This document shows positions 3,957-20,000 of a DNA stretch of 20,000 bases, one piece after another. The translations under genes and the position numbers were made by a program. Location: the IMG/VR virus record IMGVR_UViG_3300030329_003631, positions 51,047 to 71,046 of that record. One strand, written 5' to 3'. Positions within the stretch are counted from its first letter, which is position 1. Every line of letters begins with the position of its first letter. The notes below the pieces were generated by a model that was not told the DNA's origin, did no database searches, and saw only the letters and a list, made by a program, of their open reading frames with translations. The stretch comes from an uncultured virus (IMG/VR IMGVR_UViG_3300030329_003631) (lineage: Duplodnaviria > Heunggongvirae > Uroviricota > Caudoviricetes).

Positions 3957-4039
3957 CTTGTTTTTTTATTGTGAGCCATCATAAATACAGCGAAAGCGTA
4001 TAAGCCCGTTATAATTAAAATTAATACCATACAGCCCAT
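3953..4039 (-). CDS. Micro membrane peptide (28 aa)
   Basis: MGCMVLILIITGLYAFAVFMMAHNKKTR; ATGA overlap with the next gene. Confidence 0.45.
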   Translation of the reverse strand: MGCMVLILIITGLYAFAVFMMAHNKKTR

Positions 4040-4152
4040 ATTTTAGCCCCAACAGGGGTATCGCATATTAATACTCTTTTCTTTACTACAGGCTCTTTAT
4101 CTTTATCCTTATTGTACTTAGGATTTTTACTGTTTAGTTTTCTTTTCTTCAT
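4021..4152 (-). CDS. Small basic protein (43 aa)
   Basis: MKKRKLNSKNPKYNKDKDKEPVVKKRVLICDTPVGAKIWAVWY. Confidence 0.55.
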   Translation of the reverse strand: MKKRKLNSKNPKYNKDKDKEPVVKKRVLICDTPVGAKIWAVWY

Positions 4153-4243
4153 TAGTAAAATCGTCTTTAAAATTTGGTGATGTTACAGCCTCTACAACAC
4201 AAGCTATTATTACCATTAAATATATTATTCCGAGTAATTCCAT
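4127..4243 (-). CDS. Micro membrane peptide (38 aa)
   Basis: MELLGIIYLMVIIACVVEAVTSPNFKDDFTNEEKKTKQ; TAATG coupling to the DUF3310 gene. Confidence 0.5.
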   Translation of the reverse strand: MELLGIIYLMVIIACVVEAVTSPNFKDDFTNEEKKTKQ

Positions 4244-4578
4244 TATTTTATTTTTTCTAATTCAAACTCTAAATGTGCTATTGCTTTCTTGATACACTCA
4301 ACAGGAGTGTTATGCTTTCTATTTGCTCTTAACAAATATGTTACTGCAGTACCTATGTTATAAGTTAATTCAAAATCTTCAATAACTTTTCTTGCCTCAT
4401 ATTTATGATACTTTCCAATATAATACTCTGGTATCCTACTGTCTTGTAATACCTCATCCACAACATCTTTTATATTGTTTGCTATTTCATTCATTTTATC
4501 TGAGGTTGTTGTTGCAACCCATCCGTTTCTGCCTACCTTATAGTAGTGCTCGCTGTGTTTTTCTTTTTTCTTTGTCAT
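4243..4578 (-). CDS. DUF3310-like protein (T7 gp1.7 nucleotide kinase-related)
   Basis: PEYY...EARKVIEDFELTYNIGTAVTYLLRANRK...ECIKKAIAHLE matches the family pattern P.hY..E..d.i....f..GnaiKY..Ra..K...ed.kKA..yl. Confidence 0.7.
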   Translation of the reverse strand: MTKKKEKHSEHYYKVGRNGWVATTTSDKMNEIANNIKDVVDEVLQDSRIPEYYIGKYHKYEARKVIEDFELTYNIGTAVTYLLRANRKHNTPVECIKKAIAHLEFELEKIK

Positions 4579-13643: not shown

Positions 13644-13858
13644 ATACCTTTTTTTTAAATTCTATACAATAATACAAATAATATTTATTTTACTAACACG
13701 ATTACTTATTTTATTGTTCACAAAGTTATTAACAATATTGATTCCCTTTATCAATGCAATATACAAAAAAAACGAAACAATATAAAGCGATTAGCAATTT
13801 AATGTGAGCCGATTAATGTGGATTGGTTCATTCACTATCACGTTCAATATTAAAGAAT

Positions 13859-13890
13859 AAAAAAAAGGACTATTAAAAATTAATAGCCCT
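13859..13890 (-). terminator. Intrinsic terminator (second of a tandem pair)
   Basis: aggactatta/taatagccct stem, with an A.C mismatch on plus that is G.U on minus, then a poly-T on minus. Confidence 0.65.
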
Positions 13891-13895
13891 ATTGC

Positions 13896-13936
13896 AAAAA
13901 AAAAGGGAGTGCTAGACAATTTGTCTAACACCCCCT
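13896..13936 (-). terminator. Intrinsic terminator (first of a tandem pair)
   Basis: gggagtgctagacaa/ttgtctaacacccc stem, whose mismatches are G.U on minus, followed by a T9 run on minus. Confidence 0.8.
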
Positions 13937-13958
13937 ATCAACACTAACTAACTAAAAA

Positions 13959-15635: not shown

Positions 15636-17792
15636 TTAGTAATATTTTTTAGCAAGTTTTTTCATTGTATCATTCACTAGCTTTTCTATCTTTTCATAGC
15701 TAGTGGAATAATGTTTAAAAATATCTTCGTGTTCTTGCTTTCTTTCTTGTAATGAATCAGAGTCTTCTATGTATGTTTCTCCCATATATACTTCTGTCAT
15801 GTTACTATAAACATAGTCTGATTCCATGTAGTCCTCAGCACAGATTACTTCAACTGAGTCTTTTTTAGATATATAACTCTCCATATGTCTACTATAGACA
15901 GTATCCATGTAGTAACAGTTATCAGCATCACTCCATGTTGCTTCTTCTTCATGTACATCTGAGTCTATATCTTCACAGTAGACACACTCTTCTGAGAAAT
16001 AATAAGTGTCATGGTAGTCTGAATAGCAAGCGTCATCAGTGTGTATGTAACAGTCGTGATATTCACTCCAACAGCAGTCATCTGTGTGGTGTCTCTCTCC
16101 CAAGTATTCTAGATATACCGAATTCTCATCATCTTCCCAGCCACCACTTGTACATCTTAATTGCATACAGTCATAACTATCTACAATAGTAGATTCTCCT
16201 ATATATAAGGTATTGTCATATAAAAGGTAAAATGTGTCCATGTAAGGATAATAAGAGAAGCCAGTTTCTTGTAGTTTAATATACCACCTATCTGTTTTAG
16301 ATATGACATCATCTACTAATCTATCTCCAAATATATCTTTTGAGCCTTCAAATTTAGCGTGAAAGTAGTAATCATCATAACTTTGTCTGCCTTTTGTTGC
16401 ATACTTATTATCTACTGCCCAAGCAAGAAAAGCACTTCTTACATTCTCATAACAGTGATATATCCTATCCATTACATCTATCTCCCTGTCTAGTTCACTA
16501 TCATATACTTTCCATAGTATAGCTCTTCCCATTATTAGTTCTGTTTTAGTGTGTTTATATATTAACATCTTACAAACTTTTGGGTTTCGTGTATATATGT
16601 CAAAAAATTCTCCACAACTGTCATGTCTCATACAGCTTTCTGAAAGAGGTGAGCCATTTTCTGTTTCATAATAATTTTCTTTATGATAATACTCTCTTAT
16701 CTTATCTCCCTCTACAATTTCAAACTCTCCATCACAAGATTTATAGTAAGCGTGATAAAACTCTTCTATAGCATGATTCTGTATATGTACATTACAGAAC
16801 TCTGGTTTAAAAATCTTATTAAATAAAACAGAAGGCCTACACTTTAAGGCATATTTACTTCTGATTCTCTCATCAAAAGGACTAAATAATATGTCTCCTT
16901 CTGAGAGTGTTTCAAGTAACCTAGATAGTTTAAGTTGATCTGATAAGAGTTGTAAATCTAATGAGTAAAACATCACACTAAATAATTTACTTAGTCTCCA
17001 ATAACCTATTTTTCTATCTCCTTTAACAACATAGAAAAGATTAGCTCTTTCCTCTGCTCGTAGTAAATCCCAATGATTTATTAGAGTGTCATTAACCACT
17101 GCTCTTTCTCCCATTTGTTTTTTATGGTACTCTTTAAAAGGTTTTGAAGATAAGTATTCAACGTCTCCTGTCGCTCTTACAGTGTTTAGATAATGCACAG
17201 CATATATATTATACACATAAGTGTGTGAAGTATGTTCTTCTAGCTCTTTAGTTAAACCATAATCTACAATAGGTATATGAAATACAAGTTGTAAAGCATT
17301 AGCCGTACATAACTTATGTATATTTCTGTTTCTTTCATGACATCGAGATATCATACCTGTTAAGGAAGTACAGTCATCATAAGGAATATAATCACATAAA
17401 ACATCTACATCAATAGGTTGAGTGAGATACTTCTTAGTTATTCTACTAGGACTTATCACTTCTATTCCTGACTTCTCTTGCATACTTTTACTAAGATTTT
17501 TAACTGAATGAATAAAAAAGACAGCATATTGTAATGAGCTACATTGGTAGTCTGTCTCATCATAGGGAGTTACGTGTATAGCAAACACTCTGCCTCTCAT
17601 ATAATTATTATATATCCCTCTCTCTGTTTCATATTTGAATAACTCAGCTGGCTCATCATCTAGCTTATGTGCTGATTTTAAAACACTTATATCTTCTGAT
17701 ATATTCATTGAAAACTTTAAATAATTTGTAACTCTACTAAACTCTCCTGTAAATCTTATAATTTTAATATTTTTATTTAACACACTAATCAT
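15636..17792 (-). CDS. Large hypothetical phage protein with SCM/GRAxLW/DRIY/YPYMD domain and C-terminal 15-aa repeats
   Basis: SCMRH...GRAILW...MDRIY...YPYMDTF followed by about 6 Tyr/Cys/Asp-rich repeats. Confidence 0.75.
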   Translation of the reverse strand: MISVLNKNIKIIRFTGEFSRVTNYLKFSMNISEDISVLKSAHKLDDEPAELFKYETERGIYNNYMRGRVFAIHVTPYDETDYQCSSLQYAVFFIHSVKNLSKSMQEKSGIEVISPSRITKKYLTQPIDVDVLCDYIPYDDCTSLTGMISRCHERNRNIHKLCTANALQLVFHIPIVDYGLTKELEEHTSHTYVYNIYAVHYLNTVRATGDVEYLSSKPFKEYHKKQMGERAVVNDTLINHWDLLRAEERANLFYVVKGDRKIGYWRLSKLFSVMFYSLDLQLLSDQLKLSRLLETLSEGDILFSPFDERIRSKYALKCRPSVLFNKIFKPEFCNVHIQNHAIEEFYHAYYKSCDGEFEIVEGDKIREYYHKENYYETENGSPLSESCMRHDSCGEFFDIYTRNPKVCKMLIYKHTKTELIMGRAILWKVYDSELDREIDVMDRIYHCYENVRSAFLAWAVDNKYATKGRQSYDDYYFHAKFEGSKDIFGDRLVDDVISKTDRWYIKLQETGFSYYPYMDTFYLLYDNTLYIGESTIVDSYDCMQLRCTSGGWEDDENSVYLEYLGERHHTDDCCWSEYHDCYIHTDDACYSDYHDTYYFSEECVYCEDIDSDVHEEEATWSDADNCYYMDTVYSRHMESYISKKDSVEVICAEDYMESDYVYSNMTEVYMGETYIEDSDSLQERKQEHEDIFKHYSTSYEKIEKLVNDTMKKLAKKYY

Positions 17793-18349
17793 AACTCACC
17801 TTTTTCTTGTTTTGTGCATAAAGACTCCATAGCTTCATTGTTAAATAACCTTGCTTCTTGTAGTAGTAAATCAGTGAAGTCTGCTGTCATGTTACTATAT
17901 TTTGCTTTTAACTTCTCATAGCTGTCTTTACATACTAAATATGCACGCTTACCATTTATCACTTGGTCGTAAGGATAAGGATTGTCATCTGTTGGTGGTA
18001 ATACACATTTGTTTATGTCTTCTCTAAAATTATCTTTCATTTTTGATAATATTTTGTCTAAAACACCATTGTTATTTAATTCTACTAGACGTGCAGATAC
18101 CTCACTTAATGTAAGAGAGCATACTCTACTCCAAGCTACGCTATCCAAATAAACTCTAATTAAATTAGACAATTCAGATTCATGTTTACTTTTAATACTG
18201 TCTATCTCTTTCTTAACTTCTTCTGAAACATCTAATGCTTCTGTTAAGTCTAAGATAACTTGAAGAGAATCTTCAAATGTCCTGCTGATTCTGGTTGACT
18301 CCCACTTATCTTCAGGTGTAAATTCTTTTATTTCTGTTTTCATTTCCAT
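17789..18349 (-). CDS. Hypothetical helical protein
   Basis: 186 aa; ATGA overlap with the next gene. Confidence 0.7.
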   Translation of the reverse strand: MEMKTEIKEFTPEDKWESTRISRTFEDSLQVILDLTEALDVSEEVKKEIDSIKSKHESELSNLIRVYLDSVAWSRVCSLTLSEVSARLVELNNNGVLDKILSKMKDNFREDINKCVLPPTDDNPYPYDQVINGKRAYLVCKDSYEKLKAKYSNMTADFTDLLLQEARLFNNEAMESLCTKQEKGEL

Positions 18350-18367
18350 TGTTTTAATATGTTTTAG

Positions 18368-18454
18368 TTACAGCGTAAGAACTCTTAACACAAACAAGCC
18401 AACCAATAGTATAATTTTTACTATTGTTTCTACATCTTCAAACATCTCACGCAT
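18368..18454 (-). CDS. Micro membrane peptide (28 aa), not in ORF track
   Basis: MREMFEDVETIVKIILLVGLFVLRVLTL. Confidence 0.45.
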   Translation of the reverse strand: MREMFEDVETIVKIILLVGLFVLRVLTL

Positions 18455-18482
18455 AATTTATAATATATGTTAAACTACTCTA

Positions 18483-18692
18483 TCACTCACTATCACAAGT
18501 GAAATAAAGTGGAGAATTATCTCTATGATTGTAATAGTATGTTTTGTCATCTCTATTGAGAAGATACCTGTCTTTCCAATTCAGATATTCTTCCTTAACT
18601 TGTTTTGAGTGATGAGGACACAAGTATGTGATACCTTTCAAGAACGAAAGTGTTGTGTCTTTGTCGTTAGGATTACATTTAAAACATTTCAT
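18483..18692 (-). CDS. Small Zn-finger-like protein
   Basis: MKCFKC...LCPHH; start moved to ATG 18692. Confidence 0.55.
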   Translation of the reverse strand: MKCFKCNPNDKDTTLSFLKGITYLCPHHSKQVKEEYLNWKDRYLLNRDDKTYYYNHRDNSPLYFTCDSE

Positions 18693-18724
18693 AGTATTGT
18701 CATTCACTTTATCTAACACGAAAA

Positions 18725-19192
18725 GCAGATAGCTCATATGAGAGTATCTGCGTAGTAGTGAGATGAGAGAGAGTATAGGACAGGTGGAAGGTACAAGCGT
18801 TACGACTAAATAAAACAAGTATTAAGTCCTATATCTCTCTATCTCTTGTATTGCTTATTACGAAAAATAAGACAACAACAATAAGTGATTTAACTACTAA
18901 TGTTTCCATAACTTGTAGTGCAGGTAAGACTCGAACTTACATCTGGAGTGTTCACAGTTTTTTGTGATACCTAGTATCTCTCCCGTCCTAATTCCTTTAG
19001 ACGACTGCACCAAATAAGAGGGAGAAATATGATTCAGAGTTTTCAACGCGTGATATCTCCCTCTAATGTGATATGCTCTGGCTTCCCAGCCACTCATATC
19101 AAAATGCTAAAATATAATCATTAAGGCAAAAGAAAAATTAATGATTAGATAGTAGCATAAATAAAGAAAGCTAGACAATTTTGCCTAGCTTT
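18725..19192 (-). ncRNA. Cluster of structured non-coding stem-loops around the tRNA-like element
   Basis: Inverted repeats at 18725-18751, 18760-18845, 19017-19064, 19069-19101, 19104-19158 and 19167-19192. Confidence 0.55.
18916..19011 (-). tRNA. tRNA-like RNA / atypical or pseudo-tRNA, no assignable anticodon
   Basis: Acceptor GGTGCAG/CTGCACT, U8, D stem GTCT/GGAC with GG in the loop, T arm GTAAG-TTCGAGT-CTTAC, discriminator A then CAA. Anticodon stem GGAG/CTCC encloses 31 nt. Confidence 0.75.
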
Positions 19193-19244
19193 TAAAATAG
19201 TATGCTTTACGTTGCTAATTCAAAGAAATTAAAGAAACCAACTA

Positions 19245-19829
19245 TTAGAACAATTCATTTAATACATCTCTAGTATTTATAACTGAATCTTTGTTGTTTC
19301 CTTTCTCTCCAACTTCCTTAACCTTTGTAGGATTGAAATTTAAAATCAAATCTCTTAATTCTTCCCCCTTAACTTTTGCGTTAATCTTATCATTATCTGA
19401 ACAGATAATCAAACGCAAGTTTTCGGCTAAACCCTGAATAAGCATATTATTAGAATCTGACTTAATACCAATATAAGCCGAACTCTTTGCCCATTCTGAA
19501 CGTGGCGTTTCGTTCATAACCATTCTTCCATTATCTGATGGAACAAACTGCATAACTCCGTCATTCATTCCATACTCCTTTGTCCTTACTGATTGTATAA
19601 CTCCCTTTTCATTTCTGATAACTTCTTCTTTACACTTAACTCCCTTTGATGAGAAAGCAGGTATAAATGGAATAGTCATTTTGGCTATCTGCTTGTTATC
19701 ATTTTGAGGTGATGTTATACTAATTGATAATTGCAAAGGTATTGCTGTGACTTGTCTAACTGTGTCAAGTGTTTGCAATTCTTTGTTTGTTGTTGTTGTT
19801 GTTGCTTTGTCAATTACTTTCTTTTTCAT
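19245..19829 (-). CDS. Hypothetical protein
   Basis: Start moved to ATG 19829 (MKKKVIDKATTTTT), which has an A-rich leader. Confidence 0.7.
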   Translation of the reverse strand: MKKKVIDKATTTTTNKELQTLDTVRQVTAIPLQLSISITSPQNDNKQIAKMTIPFIPAFSSKGVKCKEEVIRNEKGVIQSVRTKEYGMNDGVMQFVPSDNGRMVMNETPRSEWAKSSAYIGIKSDSNNMLIQGLAENLRLIICSDNDKINAKVKGEELRDLILNFNPTKVKEVGEKGNNKDSVINTRDVLNELF

Positions 19830-19943
19830 AATAAAATACATATTAAAATTAAATAATAAGTGTTGTGTGTCTATCTTTTTATAAGACACTAACACCCTGT
19901 CTTGTGCAACGCAACGCATACCATTATTTCAATGAACTATGTT

Positions 19944-19984
19944 CAAATATAGGTATTTATAGCCGATTATACGCATTATCTTTG
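19944..19984. promoter_or_regulatory. Divergent Bacteroidota -7 boxes
   Basis: TATATTTG on minus (19944-19951) and TATCTTTG on plus (19977-19984); no clear -33 element. Confidence 0.4.
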
Positions 19985-20000
19985 CTTAATATACCCCTAG

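Follow-up and report, generated by a model that had tools for sequence, protein, structure and literature searches.

The window analysed here, a stretch of 20,000 nt, is the final 20 kb (positions 51,047 to 71,046) of the 71,046-nt IMG/VR record IMGVR_UViG_3300030329_003631 from an uncultured virus of the Caudoviricetes, and coordinates are those of the window unless marked as genome coordinates. Our subject is a gap of 552 nt (18693–19244) between two leftward genes, gene A (19245–19832, minus strand) and gene B (18483–18692, minus strand). Read along the minus strand from gene A, the gap holds the hairpins H6, H5, H4 and H3, a tRNA-shaped gene with an oversized anticodon loop, a spacer, and the hairpins H2 and H1. 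A coding reading of the gap was considered and rejected: a 66-aa frame runs across the tRNA-shaped gene (18897–19097) and a 111-aa frame with a TTG start covers H1 and H2, and both are without homologues.

A repeat search recovered all six of the inverted repeats that the preliminary description had listed for this region. H6 (19157–19192, minus strand; arms 19167–19178/19181–19192) is a terminator- or attenuator-like hairpin whose stem (19192–19167) has 11 pairs, four of them G–C, a 4-nt loop and the tail CTTTATTTAT. H5 (19104–19158, minus strand; arms 19104–19124/19138–19158, 21 nt and 86% complementary) is A/U-rich, with a perfect 10-bp core, outer pairs and a 13-nt loop; in the fold it makes 18 pairs with internal loops (z −5.6 on the minus and −6.4 on the plus strand). 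H4 (19069–19101, minus strand; arms 19069–19075/19095–19101) is two-tiered, with 7 bp and 5 bp (minus strand: −13.8 kcal/mol, z −3.8). H3 (19017–19064, minus strand) has a 9-bp G/A-rich stem around a 30-nt loop (z −2.8), the recovered arms (19011–19028/19053–19070) including agagggaga/tctccctct. H3 ends 5 nt from the 5' end of the tRNA-shaped gene. The spacer on the 3' side of that gene (18846–18914, minus strand) has no significant fold (z −0.46 minus, −0.93 plus). It is followed by H2 (18760–18845, minus strand; −26.8 kcal/mol and z −5.1 as minus RNA), a 20-bp stem with two 1-nt bulges and a 44-nt loop that was recovered as three pairs of arms (18765–18781/18826–18843), and by H1 (18725–18751, minus strand; arms 18725–18731/18745–18751), a perfect 7-bp stem just upstream of gene B (z −3.4) whose loop contains an alternative ATG at 18737. 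These single-hairpin z-scores (−2.8 to −6.4) come from segments picked for holding a repeat. The six hairpins occupy 275 of the 468 nt of 18725–19192 (59%), or 79% when the tRNA-shaped gene is included. Substrates of RNase III are double-stranded over some two helical turns (around 20 bp); H2 is a candidate for such a site, or for a protector of the 5' end of the downstream message, and H5 may be another weak terminator or a site of processing.

The stability of the gap exceeds that expected from its composition. Folded as minus RNA it reaches −150.9 kcal/mol, compared to −117.5 ± 6.8 for 100 dinucleotide shuffles (z −4.95), and folded as plus RNA it gives z −5.55 against shuffles of the same kind. 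Thirteen windows of 552 nt, spaced evenly along this genome, had a mean z of −0.39 (sd 1.0, minimum −2.3), whereas two further intergenic-rich windows also folded well (z −3.26 and −3.54). Because of these two, fold strength is a property of the intergenic DNA of this phage in general, with the gap as the strongest case. In the density of perfect inverted repeats of at least 7 bp the gap ranked 37th of 1410 windows. The hairpins have no likeness to one another or to anything elsewhere in the genome and make up no family with a second copy, which speaks against a family of promoters and against a recurring site for protein binding. Hairpin promoters for a virion RNA polymerase were considered as well and rejected, since the 4602-aa protein has no Pfam match, PHROG match or DFDxD motif and the hairpins have no motif in common. 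The frame of this protein lies at genome 24082–37890 on the plus strand, a few genes downstream of a 1668-aa frame (genome 15653–20659).

A role at the DNA level, as an origin of replication, a site for packaging or a group of palindromes bound by protein, would fit the position of the gap, within the replication module and a single gene away from the divergent switch region, and the fact that most stems fold equally well on either strand. We regard it as very improbable, however: there are no iterons or common half-sites in the gap, its direct repeats are weak, its G+C content (34%) is close to that of the genome (33%), the cumulative GC skew turns at genome 163 and 54,572 and not in the gap, and the obvious clusters of repeated motifs, of the CTTAGTA type, are located elsewhere. 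The CTTAGTA/TACTAAG-type motif occurs in direct and inverted orientation in four copies at 348–408, inside the intergenic gap 354–498, and in about nine copies at genome 238–336, in the divergent switch region that lies at the start of the genome. These clusters are candidates for an origin or for a binding-site array of a regulator. Over the window as a whole the 7-mer shows no enrichment (9 observed, 6.3 expected).

The tRNA-like element that the preliminary description had placed among the repeats is real. It is the only ARAGORN hit in the genome (18915–19011, minus strand), and the Rfam tRNA model (RF00005) aligns to it with 27.1 bits, the cut-off being 29 (a search of 151 nt gave E 0.00047, and one of 1101 nt did not list it at E ≤ 10). 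The acceptor stem has 7 bp with G1–U72 at the top, the D stem has 4 bp with GG in its loop, the T arm reads GTAAG-TTCGAGT-CTTAC, and CCA is not encoded. According to our reading of the alignment, every nucleotide involved in tertiary contacts is present (U8, A14, G18G19, G53, T54-T55-C56, A58 and C61). The anticodon arm lacks the 5-bp stem and 7-nt loop of a tRNA: a 4-bp stem, GGAG/CUCC, closes 31 nt (18949–18979), compared to 9 in the Rfam model and the 7 to 9 expected. By default ARAGORN calls a 97-nt tRNA-Ser(ACT), of which the anticodon stem has Watson–Crick pairs at three of five positions and the 'variable arm' is 25 unpaired nucleotides. In intron mode it calls a 77-nt tRNA-His(GTG) after removal of a 20-nt 'intron' (18958–18977), giving the loop CTGTGAA on a five-position stem with one A–A mismatch. 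When the 20-nt excision is slid by hand, other 7-nt loops prove just as legal, the anticodons being GTG or ATG (His), ACG (Arg) or ACT (Ser), and the His call is therefore one of several. A bacterial tRNA-His is marked by G-1 with C73 and a tRNA-Ser by a long variable arm. Here position −1 is U, the discriminator is A and the variable region is 4–5 nt long after the 20-nt excision, so that the element has the identity elements of neither. The insertion is identical in three runs of the same phage, and it is not an assembly slip, since, among the contigs aligned from four DNA runs, those of X1, X3 and X5 span it without indels. As judged from sequence, the element would be a tRNA gene in decay, or else a tRNA carrying a short insertion that is so far unexplained, as in Lak megaphages, and in its present form it would be unable to decode. 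As the acceptor, D and T arms are intact, it may offer a site for RNase P and 3' processing.

Whether the insertion is removed after transcription deserves consideration, as the product would then be a working tRNA-His(GUG) or another decoder and the hairpins mere flanks. The His(GTG) call in ARAGORN intron mode and the indel-free contigs of the three runs speak for this, as do the tRNAs with insertions in the anticodon-loop region in Lak megaphages, whose hosts are Prevotella (Bacteroidota); the best phage matches of a neighbouring 718-aa protein are moreover in records of Lak size. Against it, the His call is not unique and lacks G-1/C73, as the Ser call lacks the long variable arm, and we know of no bacterial mechanism that removes a 20-nt insertion. 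Introns of archaeal and eukaryal tRNAs have a bulge-helix-bulge motif at their splice sites, with 4 bp between two bulges of 3 nt. Our reading of the minimum-energy fold found no such motif, the fold having a 9-nt/1-nt internal loop followed by a 7-bp helix and a 6-nt loop; in an alternative GATAC-TAG-GTATC hairpin a splice site falls within the 3-nt hairpin loop. Rfam matched no intron family, and with 20–31 nt the insertion is far too short for a group I intron, the core of which is roughly 200 nt or more. An RNA ligase such as RtcB was not found among the 72 proteins scanned against PHROGs, though Cellulophaga phage phi38:1 has one. Removal of the insertion thus seems quite unlikely to us. 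In phi38:1 (NC_021796) the module with the homologues of the peptidase and the 718-aa protein also carries two tRNA-Glu genes next to its RtcB-type 'tRNA splicing ligase'.

Other origins of the odd arm, and attempts to place the element by its conserved parts, led nowhere. The insertion as a mobile piece was rejected, there being no second copy in the genome or IMG/VR. H3 as a copy of the odd anticodon arm was rejected too: the local score of 21 exceeds that of shuffles (14.2 ± 2.9, with 3.4% reaching it), but unrelated windows of the genome score 28–32. A search for isotype or host from the T arm and acceptor was equally unproductive, as the exact 23-mer matched one unrelated viral contig with another odd tRNA-like element and a looser acceptor/T-arm pattern gave 4 viral and 26 bacterial loci and was uninformative. 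ARAGORN was run on 25 looser-pattern loci (19 of the 26 bacterial and 3 of the 4 viral ones, plus L002/L006); it called genes at the match as Glu, Cys, Asp, Ala and Tyr and made no tRNA call at 12 loci. The viral loci matching the T-arm pattern had no protein in common with the phage genome. In the class of a Flavobacteriales metagenome-assembled genome, 4 of 301 genomes gave matches, of 27–29 nt only; three covered the T arm and 3' acceptor strand and one lay further 5', and one match was inside a tRNA-Met gene. Three loci in IMG/VR are worth recording on their own account. The 5,234-nt IMG/VR contig L002 (= L006) has at 1444–1525 an aberrant tRNA-like element with the identical 23-nt T arm and 3' acceptor strand; it scores 27 bits with the Rfam tRNA model, its D and anticodon regions cannot be aligned, ARAGORN makes no call, and it lies directly after a gene and terminator hairpin in an unrelated phage fragment. 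At L005 1198–1282 in IMG/VR, a tRNA has the long-variable-arm body of the tRNA-Tyr(GTA) of neighbouring loci but a GCA (Cys) anticodon, and at L008 1104–1183 a tRNA called with a four-base anticodon (aagc) adjoins a tRNA-Tyr.

Several features suggest the strand from which the gap is read. H6 lies 52 nt after the stop codon of gene A and is the only terminator-like site in 17500–20000, where shuffles give a mean of 0.5. It has one G–U pair on the minus strand and is more stable as minus RNA (−13.3 kcal/mol) than as plus RNA (−8.8), and it shows what is expected of an intrinsic terminator: a G+C-containing stem and a U-rich tail, on the transcribed strand and after a gene. Its U-tract is interrupted, unlike those of 8–9 U in the terminators at 13644–13958. 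In the latter region (minus strand) two strong intrinsic terminators with G+C-rich stems stand back to back and are followed by a TAnnTTTG box at 13721, making a clear operon boundary within the leftward module. TAnnTTTG is the consensus of the −7 promoter element of Bacteroidota. In this genome 11 of 60 sense hits to it are in non-coding DNA, which makes up 5.6% of the genome, compared to 4 of 57 antisense hits; nine of the 11 are 15–78 nt before a start codon and two are further off, one of these being 463 nt upstream, near the genome start, where it reads as a terminal-overlap copy of the box at 19944. This box (19944–19951, minus strand), 25 nt before the first ATG of gene A, is the nearest one upstream of the gap, and 18301–19300 contains none on either strand. 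Promoter hits of sigma-70 type were no more numerous than in shuffles (18 against 13.3 ± 3.9). As the neighbours are all on the minus strand, H6 is better on the minus strand and the gap contains no host-type box, it is probable from this sequence context that the gap is transcribed from the minus strand within a longer RNA.

Such a longer minus-strand RNA had been part of the preliminary description, which proposed a polycistronic precursor releasing antisense guides or decoys against translation starts. The longer RNA is probable from the context; guides or decoys acting at starts found no support. Duplex energies of five loops, on both strands, were computed for the start regions (−30 to +20) of the phage's own 75 frames and for as many internal sites, with 30 shuffled loops as a control. 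On the minus strand none of the five loops paired better with the starts than with the internal sites, or better than the shuffled loops did. Minus-strand loops paired on average worse at starts than at internal sites, and 13–97% of the shuffled loops equalled the best start-region duplexes. For the H2 loop the best start duplex was −19.2 kcal/mol, compared to −29.5 at internal sites, and 97% of the shuffles equalled it. A value of −36.1 for the H4 loop on the plus strand was discarded as an artefact, as the 'start region' of the spurious 66-aa frame overlaps H4. The resemblance of the loops to gene starts, on which the proposal had leaned, is therefore an impression that the pairing test does not bear out. 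An Rfam scan at permissive thresholds, which had been suggested as a check, found no small-RNA family to fit the flanking hairpins: the best hits were to eukaryotic snoRNA and miRNA families (E at least 0.26), and the CRISPR-repeat family RF01379 (CRISPR-DR66; 18.4 bits against a cut-off of 45, E 0.76–3.4) matched H6 itself. That one of the six hairpins, H6, is a plain terminator also counts against a guide cassette.

A cassette of non-coding RNA could take a more general form, in which the gap yields either a single structured RNA in abundance or a precursor that is cleaved at the tRNA-shaped element to give several stable small RNAs. We consider this form unlikely, and give the same low weight to the further idea that such RNAs act in trans, as antisense regulators or as sponges or decoys, for example of proteins that bind RNA or of the nucleases with which a host cleaves tRNA in defence. 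A cassette would agree with the gap being the most strongly folded of 16 windows, with a non-coding stretch that is better conserved than the flanking genes in a variant strain (see below), and with the highly transcribed intergenic regions at the early end of the Bacteroidota phage phi14:2; a tRNA body that does not decode and has every tertiary-contact nucleotide is, in addition, the expected look of a mimic. However, no Rfam family came at or near its cut-off, the loops had no excess of pairing with the phage's own start regions, H6 is a terminator, the other hairpins have no second copy or family in the genome, and no likeness to the phi14:2 non-coding region was found. A selected mimic that does not decode, keeping the L-shape with a 31-nt module in place of the anticodon loop, is in itself a rather improbable reading of the tRNA-shaped RNA. 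If it were true, the RNA would still pass as a tRNA with RNase P, the CCA-adding enzyme and tRNA-binding proteins, the 31-nt module could soak up or evade host anticodon nucleases, and the mimic and its flanking hairpins would be an abundant early non-coding RNA unit as in phi14:2 and the Lak phages.

Comparisons with other genomes were few. Relatives of the region were found neither by blastn in INPHARED nor in IMG/VR, which was searched with both flanking proteins, the alignment of gene A and the peptidase, and a metagenome scan gave only two pieces of the same phage. Within the phage, a variant strain in run X5 differed at 17 of 1044 covered coding positions around the gap and at 1 of 377 covered non-coding ones (19162, between H5 and H6), a contrast with a one-sided Fisher p of 0.028 that is based on one variant at a depth of 4–6 in which H1 and H2 are not covered. 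This is a weak hint of constraint on the non-coding stretch. It bears on the idea that the gap is a decaying remnant of a former tRNA and small-gene region, in which the tRNA would be a pseudogene hit by a 20-nt insertion and most hairpins other than the terminator H6 would be without function. The Rfam score below cut-off and the disrupted anticodon arm would fit such decay, as would the occurrence of the element in no relative found, the unrelated and unique hairpins and the unstructured spacer (18846–18914). Yet a genome that is 94.7% coding rarely retains 550 nt of junk, the fold excess is large, and the X5 variant has fewer differences here than in the flanking genes, and we therefore hold decay to be somewhat less probable even than removal of the insertion.

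With these alternatives weighed, we lean, at slightly better than even confidence, towards the gap being a co-transcribed RNA structure that acts in cis in a leftward operon, around an aberrant tRNA-shaped element. It appears to us likewise a little more probable than not that the hairpins punctuate and stabilise the RNA in cis, rather than being sources of guides acting in trans. Transcripts would begin at the promoter box before gene A and reach H6, a leaky terminator. The read-through RNA would contain H5, H4, H3, the tRNA-shaped element, the spacer, H2, H1, gene B and the rest of the replication module. RNase P and 3'-end enzymes would most likely excise the tRNA-shaped element, which probably serves at least as a processing site, and H3 would then cap the 3' end, and H2 the 5' end, that this cut leaves on the mRNA pieces; with its 20 bp, H2 could also serve as an RNase III site. 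Some observations weigh against this. None of the seven listed runs is recorded as RNA, and transcription, read-through of H6 and processing are all inferred. The G–U pair settles the strand for H6 only, H2, H3 and H5 being slightly better on the plus strand, and the motif scan is blind to a phage-specific promoter. Five hairpins and a terminator in 550 nt exceed what the protection of RNA ends needs, and no other of the 16 windows tested folds as strongly. The INPHARED, IMG/VR and metagenome scans, moreover, gave no relatives of the region in which covariation of the stems could show. If the cis-acting reading is true, the gap is one more punctuated phage operon, which would help annotation and is unsurprising.

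The genes on either side of the gap offer little on function. Gene A encodes 195 aa from the ATG common to its homologues, the open frame extending to 19919; its four homologues (54–56% identity by alignment, 55–57% by BLASTP) are on contigs of at most 3,090 nt, and no relative was found in Pfam, PHROG or among solved structures. Gene B encodes a Cys-rich protein of 69 aa without a PHROG or Pfam match or a homologue; its start at 18692 was picked by reading, and the frame is open to 18818 from a TTG. The record has 33% G+C and its first 98 nt, as read by eye, are repeated at its end. Because of this repeat and of a run X1 contig that continues from the last base of the window into the record start, the genome is circular or terminally redundant, and it is essentially complete. 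It has 75 ATG-started frames in the standard code, with TAA as the stop in 52, TAG in 14 and TGA in 9, and by these frames and stops there is no sign of recoding. Neither the region nor the genome has a tmRNA according to ARAGORN in tmRNA mode, and Rfam gave no tmRNA match. Rightward genes (genome 546–54,515) include those for a portal, an SU10-type capsid protein, the 1668-aa and 4602-aa proteins and a holin, and genome 54,508–70,965 carries genes for a primase-helicase, a PD-(D/E)XK exonuclease, RusA, NinB and a peptidase, every gene there being on the minus strand. The phage is lytic-looking. Its DNA was seen only in marine metagenomes, partial or whole, namely one TARA contig and six runs of two studies; the seventh listed run has almost none of its words. 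The portal shares 23% identity with those of crAss-like phages, and the peptidase has 52% identity over 132 residues to gp038 of phi38:1. The 718-aa protein (15636–17792, minus strand), whose C-terminal part is rich in Cys, His, Asp and Tyr, has no family match; it has distant matches (24–30% identity) in the Cellulophaga phages phi38:1, phi40:1 and Calle and also in five 'uncultured phage' records of 635–735 kb, at 7–13 places per record; to judge by their size, these records may be Lak-type megaphages. Due to the matches of these three proteins and the sense enrichment of TAnnTTTG boxes, the host is, on this sequence evidence, probably a member of the Bacteroidota.

Phages with structured RNA between their genes are known, and the comparison helps to separate what is ordinary in the gap from what is not. 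Phage T4 has a tRNA cluster with eight working tRNAs and the species 1 and 2 RNAs, stable RNAs that have been proven experimentally. As in that cluster, the tRNA-shaped RNA and other structured RNAs would come from one precursor through RNase P and other host enzymes, as the preliminary description also supposed; unlike T4, there is here one aberrant tRNA shape, known from its sequence. T7-like phages have RNase III hairpins with a characteristic internal loop between their early genes; these have been mapped biochemically, and the hairpins stabilise mRNA ends. H2 and perhaps H5 resemble these sites in being long, imperfect intergenic stems of the right size, around 20 bp, but in H2 the terminal loop measures 44 nt and the stem is interrupted by two 1-nt bulges, and its cleavage is a prediction. 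In Cellulophaga phage phi14:2, two intergenic regions at the early end are transcribed above most genes, with a function called undetermined in the preprint that describes them (10.1101/2020.03.07.982082). Both are marine phages with a non-coding gap near the early end, and the gaps of phi14:2, as described there, follow the first genes and are transcribed in the sense of the neighbours; they are much longer, however, with about 1.7 kb free of annotated genes, and a search for sequence likeness between our gap and the phi14:2 non-coding region found none. The long non-coding gap after g004 of phi14:2 (NC_021806), a crAss-like phage, has a tmRNA-like gene at 4031–4502 on the plus strand, with the ARAGORN tag peptide GSSVQKLAMVA* and an Rfam RF00023 score of 46 bits (cut-off 47, E 2.6e-16).

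By analogy, the nearest precedent for the tRNA-shaped gene may be the 'enigmatic' tRNA introns of the Lak megaphages of Prevotella, predicted insertions of 23–141 nt in the anticodon-loop region that account for 15 entries of Table S6 in Devoto et al. (2019, PMC6784885); large intergenic regions of these phages are also reported there to be highly expressed. In both cases a phage of a likely Bacteroidota host has an overlong tRNA-shaped gene with extra sequence in the anticodon-loop region, there is no known splicing mechanism, and the shortest Lak case, 23 nt (positions 38–60), is close to the 20 nt found here. The Lak insertions are, however, mostly 52–141 nt long, were placed by tRNAscan at or near position 37/38 and are conserved across cohorts, in genomes with 30–35 tRNAs, whereas our phage has 71 kb, a single tRNA-shaped gene and an ambiguous excision point. 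As far as the literature search went, reports of short unexplained insertions in phage tRNAs were found for Lak megaphages only, and nothing specific was found in later work on phage tRNA insertions or decoys. The tRNA shape with its oversized anticodon loop thus belongs to a known, unexplained kind, the remainder of the gap being ordinary, and a marine phage of 71 kb with one such gene provides a simpler system for asking if RNAs of this kind are spliced, decoys or junk.

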